From UHGV virus genome UHGV-1689382: DNA of 10,734 bases; one strand, given 5' to 3'. How positions within the stretch are numbered: position 1 is the first letter of the stretch; each line of letters begins with the position of its first letter. This DNA comes from a virus. The position numbers and the translations under genes are program-made. Below are positions 8,859-10,734 of this stretch, piece by piece. Below the pieces are notes generated by a model, which saw only the letters and a program-made list of their open reading frames with translations, had not been told where the DNA came from and did no database searches.

Positions 8859-9043
8859 ACGCCACAATTCAAACGATACCAGAGCTTCTTATCCAGACAC
8901 GAGGCAATAAGACCGAAGTGGCGAGGATGCTTTCCTGCGCAAGAGGAACAGTGCTCAAGTACAACCGAGACAGCAAAGGCGAGCGTCACGTAATAGTTAA
9001 CGGCGTCCTGATGGTCAAACAGGGCAAGAGGGGAAGACGATGA
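8855..9043 (+). CDS. ninH: NinH-like small DNA-binding protein (62 aa)
   Basis: TIPELLIQTRGNKTEVARMLSCARGTVLKY...VIVNGVLMV parallels lambda NinH (TIPDMLVEAYGNQTEVARRLKCSRGTVRKY...AIVNDVLMV) from memory. Overlaps the rusA stop and the Q start. Confidence 0.7.
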   Translation: MNATIQTIPELLIQTRGNKTEVARMLSCARGTVLKYNRDSKGERHVIVNGVLMVKQGKRGRR

Positions 9044-9528
9044 GCATAAGAGAAATAAACCTCACCAAAGAACAGCACGATTGGCTGAATGGCTGGCTTG
9101 AACTGTGGGGCGCATGGGTTTATTCAGGTCGTCTGGAAAAGCGCATGAGCAGCGTAATAGCGAAGTTCATGGAGAGCGTAGAGCCGGGAAGAGTTATGAC
9201 AAGGCCAATGTGTAATGATGATGATGGAATGTTGATTTCTCAGATCGTCGATTCCGTCATGTGCATTGACAAGAAAGCCTTTGGCATCCTCCTCAGCTAC
9301 TACGCTCATGGATCTTCCAAGCATGCCATTGCATCTTACTATCATCGTGTCGCAAGACCTCGCAAGATGTTATGCCGGGGCGGCGGGCGTATTCAAAAAC
9401 CATCGCTCGCAACCTGTCGCCGGGAAGTTGACGAAATCCTCAATGCTTCGTTGTTTATGATTTACCCAGTTCTGGATAGTGCGTTTAAAAACCGGAAACG
9501 TGTAGAGAAAATTAAACATGTAGCATAG
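9040..9528 (+). CDS. Q: Late-gene antitermination protein Q (phage 82 / QuuD-like family)
   Basis: 162 aa; HDWLNGWLELWGAWVYSGRLEKRMSSVIAKFMESVEPGRVMTRPMCNDDDGML matches the Q82-type antiterminator family from memory. Last gene before a promoter-like element and the lysis cassette. Confidence 0.85.
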   Translation: MSIREINLTKEQHDWLNGWLELWGAWVYSGRLEKRMSSVIAKFMESVEPGRVMTRPMCNDDDGMLISQIVDSVMCIDKKAFGILLSYYAHGSSKHAIASYYHRVARPRKMLCRGGGRIQKPSLATCRREVDEILNASLFMIYPVLDSAFKNRKRVEKIKHVA

Positions 9529-9534
9529 AACGTG

Positions 9535-9565
9535 TTGACATCATTGAGCAAATGAGCAACACTAT
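9535..9565 (+). promoter_or_regulatory. Putative late promoter PR' (-35 TTGACA)
   Basis: Consensus -35 TTGACA at 9535..9540, 7 nt after the Q stop. Candidate -10 elements 17-19 bp downstream (AACACT / CACTAT) are weak, so the exact -10 and start site are uncertain. Confidence 0.45.
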
Positions 9566-9618
9566 TCGCATAAGCTGCCGTTAGTGACTCTTAAGTTGCG
9601 ACGGTGGCTTTTTTGTTT

Positions 9619-9687
9619 GCACAACAGGTAAGAGCATTCTCCCTTATGGGGCTTGGCTTAAATGCACCGAGTGCTCTTATCGTTGTG
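9619..9687 (+). repeat. Hairpin-forming repeat unit 1 (long imperfect inverted repeat)
   Basis: Left arm CACAACAGGTAAGAGCA (9620..9636) pairs with right arm TGCTCTTATCGTTGTG (9672..9687), about 16 bp with one bulged A and one G-T pair, around a 35-nt loop. The 16-mer GCACAACAGGTAAGAG (9619..9634) recurs exactly at 10035..10050. Confidence 0.5.
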
Positions 9688-9888
9688 GCAGCACAACGAT
9701 AGTTTTCGTCAGAGTTGGCGACTTTGCGGGTTTTTAGAAGCTGACCACAAAGATAAATGCAAACGATGATTTGATGTTGATGGCGGCCTAAGAAACCAAA
9801 ATCACGGGGTCTTCCGACTCCCCGCTACCAAATTCGGCGCACTGGCCCGGTGTGATTAATAATGGGCACCCATTCAAATGTACCCTCG

Positions 9889-9914
9889 GCAGGTTCGATT
9901 CCTGACTAGACCCA
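9889..9914 (+). other. tRNA-like remnant (T-arm GGTTCGATTCC with no matching acceptor stem)
   Basis: Canonical T-loop TTCGATT (9894..9900) flanked by a 4-bp stem CAGG/CCTG, with CCA at 9912..9914 in one register. No complementary 5' acceptor strand was found within about 90 nt upstream. Confidence 0.25.
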
Positions 9915-10034
9915 GATGGCGACGGGGAGGGTCCAATTGAGTGGGTAACAACGGGCATGTCGCCTTAGTAAATCCCTCAAGGGTGCGACGCATAGACCGG
10001 TACTAGCGTCGCCGTTAGCTCCACGAAACGGAGC

Positions 10035-10121
10035 GCACAACAGGTAAGAGTATTTGTAGAGTTCGACTCTCTACCGTGGGATTTTTTCCGCGATGCGAGC
10101 CATAAATGCTCTTTCCGTTGT
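10035..10121 (+). repeat. Hairpin-forming repeat unit 2 (second copy of the 16-mer plus matching right arm)
   Basis: Left arm CACAACAGGTAAGAGTA (10036..10052) pairs with TGCTCTTTCCGTTGTG (10106..10121). The loop contains a T-arm-like hairpin GTAGAG-TTCGACT-CTCTAC (10056..10074) followed by a T6 run (10082..10087). Confidence 0.5.
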
Positions 10122-10451
10122 GCTGAATTAAGCGAATGCCGGAAGCAGAACCGGATCACCAAATGCGTACAGGCGTCATCGCCGCCCAGCAACAGCACAA
10201 CCCAAACTGAGCCGTAGCCACTGGCTATCCTGGATTCATCAGTGATAGTTATGCTGCGGCCTTCTACACATGACCTTCGTGAAAGCGGGTGGCATGAGGT
10301 TGCGCTAACAACCTCCTGCCGTTTTGCCCGTGCATATCGGTCACGAACAAATCTGATTACTAAACACAGTAGCCTGGATTTGTTCTATCAGTAATCGACC
10401 TTATTCCTAATTAAATAGAGCAAATCCCCTTATTGGGGGTAAGACATTAAG

Positions 10452-10734
10452 ATGCCAGAAAAACATGACCTGTTAGCCGCCATTTTCGCGGCAAAGGAAC
10501 AAGGCATCGGGGCAATCCTTGCGTTTGCAATGGCGTACCTTCGCGGCAGATATAATGGCGGTGCGTTTACAAAAACAGTAATCGACGCAACGATGTGCGC
10601 CATTATCGCCTGGTTCATTCGTGACCTTCTCGACTTCGCCGGACTAAGTAGCAATCTCGCTTATATAACGAGCGTGTTCATCGGCTACATCGGTACTGAC
10701 TCGATTGGTTCGCTTATCAAACGCTTCGCTGCTA
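10452..10734 (+). CDS. S: Holin S (lambda type), 3'-truncated by the window edge
   Basis: Hand translation [94 protein letters not shown] corresponds to lambda S105 from its Met3 start. Upstream GGGGG SD and sdi-like structure. The frame runs off the window, so it is absent from the ORF track. Confidence 0.9.

Follow-up and report, generated by a model that had tools for sequence, protein, structure and literature searches.

The window analysed here—a stretch of 10,734 nucleotides from the virus genome UHGV-1689382—is the late-control region of a lambdoid prophage and carries, in the leader between the terminator tR' and the holin gene S, two copies of a long imperfect hairpin, hereafter H (copies H1 and H2). 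H belongs to a widespread conserved family featuring a nearly invariant stem and a hypervariable interior. On balance, H is probably a phage RNA hairpin that stands between stable-RNA genes, that serves the recombination of a cassette through its arms, and whose stem is likely a site for RNase III. The repeat unit set out by the two copies, 416 bp in length, is such a cassette; the RNA encoded in it, termed tag RNA, resembles the mRNA-like part of transfer-messenger RNA (tmRNA, ssrA) but falls short of tmRNA membership.

The two copies were recognised by the 16-mer GCACAACAGGTAAGAG, which occurs at 9619–9634 and 10035–10050, as claimed in an earlier note made from the sequence, and has no further site in the window at up to three mismatches. 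A chance origin of the repeat was rejected on expectation (0.08 matches) and on shuffles (2 matches in 1 of 200). The full direct repeat is 20 nt long with 95% identity, and its copies lie 416 bp apart. On the 3' side, the arms read TGCTCTTATCGTTGTG (9672–9687) and TGCTCTTTCCGTTGTG (10107–10122); the pairing proposed in the earlier note hence stands, although its second arm (10106–10121) was off by one and its length of about 16 bp was too short. The hairpins are laid out as follows:

H1, 9619–9688, plus strand: 5' arm 9619–9639, a 29-nt apical interior, and 3' arm 9669–9688.
H2, 10035–10123, plus strand: 5' arm 10035–10055 and 3' arm 10104–10123.
Interior of H2, plus strand: a T-arm-like hairpin at 10056–10074, a 7-bp hairpin at 10075–10092, and a tail.

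The stem of approximately 20–22 bp consists of 6–7 outer pairs, a bulged A, GG/CC, and then 10–11 inner pairs. The position between GG/CC and the inner stem is a U-A pair in copy 1 and a U·U mismatch in copy 2. The predicted folds have energies of −33.4 kcal/mol (z −4.5) for H1 and −40.1 kcal/mol (z −5.2) for H2, reached by 0 of 200 shuffles in either case, and are weaker on the opposite strand (−25.7 and −30.7, respectively). Rfam 15 places no family over either stem, even at E values up to 10; inside the hairpins, the only match is a 13-nt micro-hit of a tmRNA T arm, located in the interior of H2 (10059–10071, E 1.7).

Lambda carries a single copy of H directly after tR' (J02459 44786–44863), and HK75, CUS-3, and JEP4 carry one each at the same place—with arms shared with lambda and with differing interiors. 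A stem of 20–22 bp is predicted in all four phages folded and has the duplex length associated with RNase III (at least 20 bp, about two helical turns, mostly Watson–Crick). An exact scan of IMG/VR with a 15-mer of the 5' arm yielded at least 120 contigs, and among the matches listed 101 copies have a fitting 3' arm. About 14 of the 15-mer matches arise by chance within coding sequences of unrelated phages; having no 3' arm, they were left out. The stem follows the near-invariant scheme CACAAC-A-GG-T-AAGAGCATTG ... CAGTGCTCTT-(T/A)-(C/T)C-GTTGTG. The interior measures 39–180 nt and occurs in 69 distinct sequences, which are mostly unrelated to each other. A T-arm-like hairpin is found in 11 of the 69, compared with 0.14 expected, and the T-loop is missing from most interiors, those of lambda and HK75 included. 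A coding reading of the interiors was rejected because of indels of all lengths modulo 3 (36/14/19).

The stem is maintained as a structure. Across 59 distinct arm pairs, 88.4% of the cells are paired over 21 positions, and both sides change in 8 pairs. The covariation score of 0.140 is reached by 0 of 500 shuffles (0.080 ± 0.006), and slid controls remain at or below 0.061. Compensatory outer stems comprise CACAAC/GTTGTG, TACAAC/GTTGTA, CGTAAC/GTTGCG, ACTATC/GATAGT, GCTATC/GATGGT, and GAAACT/AGTTTT. A U·G wobble is present in 45 of the 59 arm pairs, and one variant, TGTAAC/GTTGTG, carries three wobbles. Because of these G·U wobbles and the more stable folding of the plus strand, the selected fold is that of the plus (late-transcript) strand—which agrees with the suggestion in the earlier note of structured RNA in the transcript from the late promoter PR'.

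The family extends across the Enterobacterales: a 19-mer scan with one genome per species located it in Serratia, Yersinia, Klebsiella, Pantoea, Erwinia, Pectobacterium, and Citrobacter, among other genera. Lambda contamination is the likely source of the other 19-mer matches. Lambda-type hairpin contigs in assemblies of Pseudomonas, Shewanella, Oceanobacillus, Neobacillus, Psychrobacter, and others are apparently contaminating phage lambda; the contigs in question (L133, L158, L166, L147, L156, and others) are about 48.4–48.5 kb long or very small, several with coverage near 1. The late regions of the K-12 prophages DLP12 and Qin contain no copy of H, and published RNase III maps of K-12 are therefore uninformative for H.

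The copies of H lie at the borders of small-RNA genes. Among the 101 copies, 42 stand behind a terminator-like U-run (17 distinct terminators), 14 directly behind the pseudoknot of a tag RNA, and 7 behind the ..ACGAAAC.. hairpin typical of the long form of the tag RNA. At least 3 begin 1–2 nt past the ..CCA of a tRNA; behind tRNA-Thr, the 5' arm begins 1 nt past ..ACCA. Most other copies are preceded by a small hairpin and CA. In the loci L085, L011, L062, and L124, this small hairpin with CA (..GCCTGGAAAGACAGGCA) resembles the 3' end of the sas RNA of phage P22, listed as ..CCUGACGUGGUUAAAAGACAGGCACAA.. (PMC13397905). The small RNA P22E of the P22 late leader was found to be unrelated.

On the other side, the 3' arm nearly always enters a unit that starts with G-TGAA and closes 60–130 nt on with ..CCACCACAAC. 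These units are tRNA-like, and some, of the HK75 type, possess a canonical D arm and T arm. In two loci, L108 and L095, the downstream unit is a real tRNA-Arg(tct) that starts within the hairpin 3' arm, at its last GTG (GTTGTG|GCATTAGCTC); by hand reading, its acceptor stem would feature the wobbles U2·G71 and G3·U70. The locus L050 carries, on the minus strand at 264–330, an int-alpA RNA (Rfam RF02996, 43.7 bits) about 35 nt downstream of the post-hairpin tRNA-like unit, overlapping a terminator similar to the tR' type of locus L022.

An array of such elements is found in L013 (IMGVR_UViG_3300045988_157647, reverse strand). It begins with a terminator, a tag RNA, a hairpin variant, and the tRNAs -Arg, -Tyr, and -Thr; continues with a hairpin bearing the copy 2 interior of the window, a tRNA-like unit, another hairpin variant, and a second tRNA-like unit; and ends with tRNA-Ser and a hairpin that has the 67-nt module of lambda as its interior. 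In lambda itself, this module lies 3' of the hairpin (J02459, about 44864–44935). Modules hence shift between a position inside a hairpin and one between hairpins. From the order in L013 and from the placements above, it follows that the hairpin is a spacer or leader between small-RNA genes, co-oriented with them. The H1-type interior accompanies the tag RNA elsewhere too (L122 and L127).

The cassette is filled by the tag RNA, which features the following parts:

9698–9867, plus strand: core of the tag RNA ('X'), near-invariant across unrelated phages as judged by alignments, nhmmer in 28 loci, and BLAST.
9759–9791, plus strand: tag frame GCA AAC GAT GAT TTG ATG TTG ATG GCG GCC TAA, giving ANDDLMLMAA*.
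9805–9824, plus strand: post-tag hairpin CGGGG/CCCCG, with both sides changing in 3 of 5 pairs.
9838–9867, plus strand: H-type pseudoknot, formed by CGCAC 9838–9842/GTGTG 9850–9854 and GCCC 9845–9848/GGGC 9864–9867.
9869–9945, plus strand: long internal hairpin of the long-form tag RNA, with about 19 predicted pairs and a T-arm-like motif at 9890–9906.
9946–10034, plus strand: second half of the long form with GCGACGC/GCGTCGC (9985–10012) and GCTCC-ACGAAAC-GGAGC (10018–10034), from nhmmer and compensatory pairs.

The region 9698–10030 shows 74–91% identity to unannotated DNA in 461 phage records by BLAST, with mainly Salmonella, Klebsiella, Escherichia, and Erwinia as hosts. Carriers of the tag RNA include Skatevirus, Drexlerviridae, an N4-like Schitovirus, Nonanavirus, and Klebsiella siphoviruses, and several virulent carriers have a TTGACA-17-TAGATT promoter right upstream of it. 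This promoter is present in GP-1, BUCT_XGG_PSM_3377, PJ16, and Bas77-81. 'Hypothetical protein' coding sequences annotated over the tag RNA or the hairpins (XMR90350.1, PJ16_048, and CPT_Pollock81; L005 2498–2713, L008 2416–2853, and L007 2171–2410) are probably spurious reading frames over RNA genes.

In all 17 distinct versions, the tag frame consists of 10 codons and a stop, lacks a start codon, and is not interrupted by stops; internal stops do interrupt the other two frames, one in 16 and one in 9 of the 17 versions. Synonymous codon differences number 77 in the tag frame versus 12 and 41 in the others and include the swaps UUG/CUG, GCG/GCC/GCU, UUU/UUC, GAA/GAG, GUG/GUC, and UAA/UAG. A +1 AUG mini-ORF over the tag was rejected as coding on account of its non-synonymous changes. 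By alignment, the tag frame is in register with the tag of E. coli ssrA; like that of tmRNA, it is a start-less 10-codon frame that opens with the resume codon in GCA AAC GA, ends with (A/V)A and a stop, and lies between an A-rich ..UAAAU upstream and a hairpin and pseudoknot downstream. The post-tag hairpin and the pseudoknot are 92.7% paired with a covariation score of 0.265, compared with 0.119 for shuffles (0 of 500 reaching it); diverged versions of the pseudoknot occur in L013, L074, and L102. The hairpin at 9869–9945 shows many compensatory changes relative to BUCT, L105, and PJ16 and contains an Rfam tmRNA T-arm micro-hit at 9892–9902. In total, 99 pairs are predicted for the long form in the window, 15 of them with compensatory changes.

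The likeness to E. coli ssrA is confined to the tag region. Weak hits of the Rfam models tmRNA_permuted and alpha_tmRNA (E about 0.03) cover only this region and stay below the gathering scores, with the best at 21.9 bits versus 47 and 15.1 versus 50. At gathering score, Rfam finds nothing but tRNAs and the one int-alpA RNA in the window and 21 loci. ARAGORN detects no tmRNA in the window and 29 related loci and calls tRNAs in neighbours only; no cloverleaf is called in the window by ARAGORN or RF00005. The earlier note had described the stretch between the copies as holding tRNA-like remnants; its main content is the tag RNA, and T-arm-like motifs are present at 9890–9906 and 10056–10074. Real tRNAs do adjoin the same hairpin in other phages. 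A hand search of the H2 interior, the post-hairpin unit, and the tag-RNA 5' end for a tRNA-like domain (TLD) revealed no CCA end and no G3:U70 in any register tried, and tmRNA membership is therefore not claimed. Phages are known to carry tmRNA genes (PMC4131195, PMC11915505), and a tmRNA database holds 79 unique bacteriophage sequences (PMC11915505); the published lists of ssrA-bearing phages that were consulted name no coliphage (PMC4131195). In contrast to tmRNA, including its two-piece permuted forms, and to the TLD-only gene of the mycobacteriophage DS6A, no recognisable TLD was found in the cassette.

The hairpin and the tag RNA are physically coupled, because in several phages the sequence with which the tag RNA begins (GATAGTTTTCG) doubles as the 3' strand of an H-family hairpin lying upstream, the partner strand of which changes to match. 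This coupling raises the question whether H is an integral part of a tRNA-like or tmRNA-like RNA rather than a mere spacer. The long stem would then correspond to tmRNA helix P2, in the anticodon-stem position, with the variable interior as the intervening segment of permuted genes, and the outer 7-bp stem or the interior would mimic an acceptor and T arm in circularly permuted order. Consistent with such a role, H stands behind the tag-RNA core in most loci, a hairpin with 5 bp and a 7-nt loop often lies just 5' of H, T-arm-like motifs are enriched in the interiors, and the order within H2—T-arm, 7-bp hairpin, tail—is the one expected for a permuted tRNA-like domain; a tag frame without a start codon, in addition, needs some tRNA-like entry route. 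However, the interiors are mutually unrelated and mostly devoid of a T-loop, and copies of H also adjoin terminators and ordinary tRNAs where a tag RNA is missing. ARAGORN, whose search covers permuted tmRNA genes as well, remains silent, the Rfam tmRNA scores are far below threshold, and neither a CCA end nor a G3:U70 pair was found in any register tried by hand. An integral role of this kind is therefore doubtful, and the reading of H as a processed hairpin between RNA genes is preferred.

The 416-bp unit is present or absent as a whole. In an alignment of seven leaders, an identical H1–X–H2 unit lies behind three unrelated PR'/tR' modules: that of the window, that of L112 (lambda 6S/tR'), and the third type in L022. 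The loci L100, L034, and L032 carry a single hybrid hairpin composed of the copy 1 interior and the copy 2 continuation, and hence lack exactly one 416-bp unit. Their junctions fall at different points within the 3' arm. The three tR' contexts, the absence of exactly one unit, and the varying junctions fit a unit that comes and goes through homologous recombination between the arms. The earlier note had listed recombination junctions or module boundaries among its interpretations, which fits these data; it had also considered the ends of a small inserted element, of which the delimited cassette holds true but transposon ends do not, since the hairpin is resident singly in lambda and most lambdoid leaders. 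That note was thus right in part and missed the lambda copy, the virulent non-lambdoid members, and the tag-RNA gene.

As is typical for boundary or linker sequences, H is found in 17 distinct terminator contexts, next to several kinds of RNA gene, and with the cassette present or absent. The repeats could accordingly be imagined as a DNA-only linker, which supplies homology for module swaps and has no function as RNA: they lie exactly at junctions of unrelated modules with the cassette present or absent between them, the interior modules change positions, and 'boundary sequences' flanking the region are annotated in the CUS-3 record. The lambdoid boundary-sequence concept reportedly stems from the comparison with HK620, and such sequences are thought to mediate exchange. 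Those of CUS-3 (bsq3 and bsq4, CP000711) are short and conserved at module junctions like the cassette ends; they flank the hairpin region and do not include H, which is an inverted repeat with covariation at the RNA level. An inverted repeat is unnecessary for a pure homology patch, whereas selection on the folded plus-strand transcript is indicated by the compensatory changes, by a bulge and a mismatch that are both conserved, and by G·U pairs specific to one strand. Moreover, the element is kept in virulent phages within RNA genes driven by their own promoters. A role as DNA alone is hence unlikely.

The surroundings of the cassette in the window are given by the following features:

9040–9528, plus strand: Q antiterminator gene, a 162-aa open reading frame that is collinear with the one annotated as antitermination protein Q in phage JEP4.
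9535–9616, plus strand: PR' region and tR', with homology to the annotated HK75 features pR' and Tr'.
9535–9540, 9575–9609, and 9610–9615, plus strand: PR' −35 element TTGACA, tR' hairpin, and U-run, respectively, read from the sequence.
9677–9702, plus strand: alternative hairpin of 10–11 bp, perfect over 10 bp, TATCGTTGTG-GCAG-CACAACGATA, followed by TTTTCG, from an inverted repeat and the terminator scan.
10116–10201, plus strand: second stem GTTGTGCTG/CAGCACAAC around a lambda-type 67-nt module, from an inverted repeat and the classes of downstream units.
10452–10734, plus strand: S holin gene with 97% identity to lambda S, cut by the window end.

The assignment of PR' is by position and homology only. 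A simple promoter scan found no sigma-70-like or consensus promoter in 9450–10470 and also missed PR'. The sole terminator-like site called in the same range is 9677–9702, by a scan that missed tR' (9575–9615), and neither copy of H is followed by the U-run of an intrinsic terminator. The repeats are not the halves of a terminator or qut element, an outcome that would have spoken against the proposal of the earlier note: H begins 2–3 nt past the U-run of tR'. The homology to lambda picks up again where the second 3' arm starts, at base 10107, and the position of the stem at 10116–10201 is the site of tRNA-like units or real tRNAs in other phages. Among 5426 complete E. coli genomes, 41 contain the stretch 9600–10130 at about 99% identity, and it is unannotated there. 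At the start of gene S (10446–10454), the dual start ATG-AAG-ATG of lambda reads ATT-AAG-ATG in the window; hence, the upstream start, which gives the S107 antiholin in lambda, is absent, and the S105-type start at 10452 alone is left.

From these elements, the following course may be proposed. In lambda and most lambdoid phages, one H opens the late leader, 2–3 nt after tR'. Through homologous recombination inside the hairpin arms, the prophage in the window would have gained the cassette, which runs from the H1 3' arm through the tag-RNA gene to the H2 5' arm and interior. An H would thereby be left on both sides; recombination between the direct repeats could delete the cassette again. Transcription of the cassette would occur once Q lets transcription from PR' pass tR' and, because no consensus promoter lies in 9450–10470, probably only by this Q-dependent read-through. 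In the late transcript, the stems of about 20 bp, formed locally or between the H1 5' arm and the H2 3' arm, which are interchangeable, would serve as double-strand-RNA processing sites for host RNase III. Cleavage would cut the hairpin interiors as well as the tag RNA out of the late mRNA, and the stem ends left behind may stabilise both products.

Processing of double-stranded RNA, probably by RNase III, is the most likely function of the stem, as judged by its geometry, by precedents, and by the title of a lambda study. RNase III processes the leader–trailer stems of rRNA operons, intergenic hairpins of T7, and a site in the T4 tRNA cluster. As proposed for H, these stems are extended duplexes with imperfect pairing, placed between the units of polycistronic transcripts, from which they set stable RNAs free, and the ends that remain after cleavage stabilise the neighbouring RNAs. 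In contrast to H, their sequence is not conserved across unrelated phages, whereas the H stem is common to lambdoid, T1-like, N4-like, 9NA-like, and other phages, with interchangeable interiors. In lambda, a study by Daniels, Subbarao, Blattner, and Lozeron (1988, Virology 167:568; PMID 2849240) reportedly names one or more RNase III sites of the late leader in its title, which may fall within 44786–44863. The region concerned is the one in which H lies, in the PR' transcript upstream of S, and the lambda stem there has about 20 bp.

Several points weigh against RNase III processing as the whole explanation. RNase III is unspecific for sequence and by itself leaves a near-invariant stem unexplained; the account also needs a horizontal spread in recent times, selection that keeps homology for recombination, or a partner that reads the sequence. 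The conserved bulged A and the U·U mismatch hint at specific recognition. The pattern used to collect the arms fixed much of the inner stem, so that variation in the covariation analysis was confined to the outer and apical pairs. Finally, the 3' outer strand can pair instead with a downstream CACAAC, and the hairpin may hence be one state of a switch and not a simple cleavage site.

In a regulatory switch of this type, GUUGUG would have two possible partners. Pairing with the CACAAC upstream would close H; pairing with the one downstream would close the hairpin at 9677–9702 or the acceptor-like stem of the tRNA-like unit that comes next. The switch would thereby gate processing by RNase P or termination at UUUUCG. 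The window, lambda, and most relatives indeed show the arrangement CACAAC–GTTGTG–CACAAC, 9 bp are possible for GTTGTGGTG/CACCACAAC, and the hairpin at 9677–9702, which competes with H1 for the same GTTGTG strand, is terminator-like. However, the alternative pairing is without distinguishing covariation, H is closed in the minimum free energy folds, and the data suggest no ligand or factor, which renders such a switch quite improbable. Highly improbable, in turn, are folded single-stranded DNA recombination sites of the integron attC kind or miniature-transposon ends, since the position and orientation of H are fixed relative to the RNA genes, its G·U pairs would become A·C mismatches on the other strand, target-site duplications are not seen, no recombinase gene is annotated within 2.5 kb of the element in five virulent carriers, and the deletion junctions vary within the arm as in homologous, not site-specific, exchange. 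The likeness to attC—imperfect inverted repeats with conserved ends (GCACAAC/GTTGTGC matching RYYYAAC/GTTRRRY at 6 of 7 positions), an extrahelical base, and a variable centre, placed between cassette-like units—thus comes without the nearby integrase of integrons and with RNA genes as cargo. The processed hairpin between stable-RNA genes accordingly remains the favoured account of H.

A processing or spacer hairpin and a module linker are known kinds of element. A full-text literature search, which left the older lambda literature largely uncovered, retrieved no description of the hairpin, the tags, or a coliphage tmRNA, and no paper with the hairpin sequence or the tags was found in the literature searched. 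As far as shown, new relative to the literature found are the picture of the hairpin family, its hypervariable interiors enriched in T-loops, and its coupling to a tmRNA-like gene. Tentatively, the 416-bp unit might be a form of tmRNA that has gone unrecognised, or a counterpart comprising the mRNA-like domain only, in hundreds of Enterobacterales phages—with an entry module that is cryptic, permuted, or provided by neighbours, with a role in the re-tagging or rescue of stalled ribosomes, and with the hairpin as a 'cassette holder' for RNAs. If so, its carriers would comprise lambdoid prophages as well as virulent T1-like, N4-like, and 9NA-like phages and Klebsiella siphoviruses, and the hairpin would process and exchange tag RNAs plus the small T-loop RNAs in its interior.

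The cassette would be the first reported tmRNA-like gene of a coliphage, which suggests that phages may interfere with or replace the ribosome rescue of their host. An RNA model would, in addition, correct the short hypothetical-protein annotations over these elements in many GenBank phage records. The late leader of lambda has been studied intensely, yet the hairpin behind its tR' belongs to a family common to unrelated virulent phages. If the stems are processing sites, they would define how phages package tRNAs, tRNA-like RNAs, and the tag RNA in late and tRNA-array transcripts—and would explain the swapping of small-RNA genes between phages.

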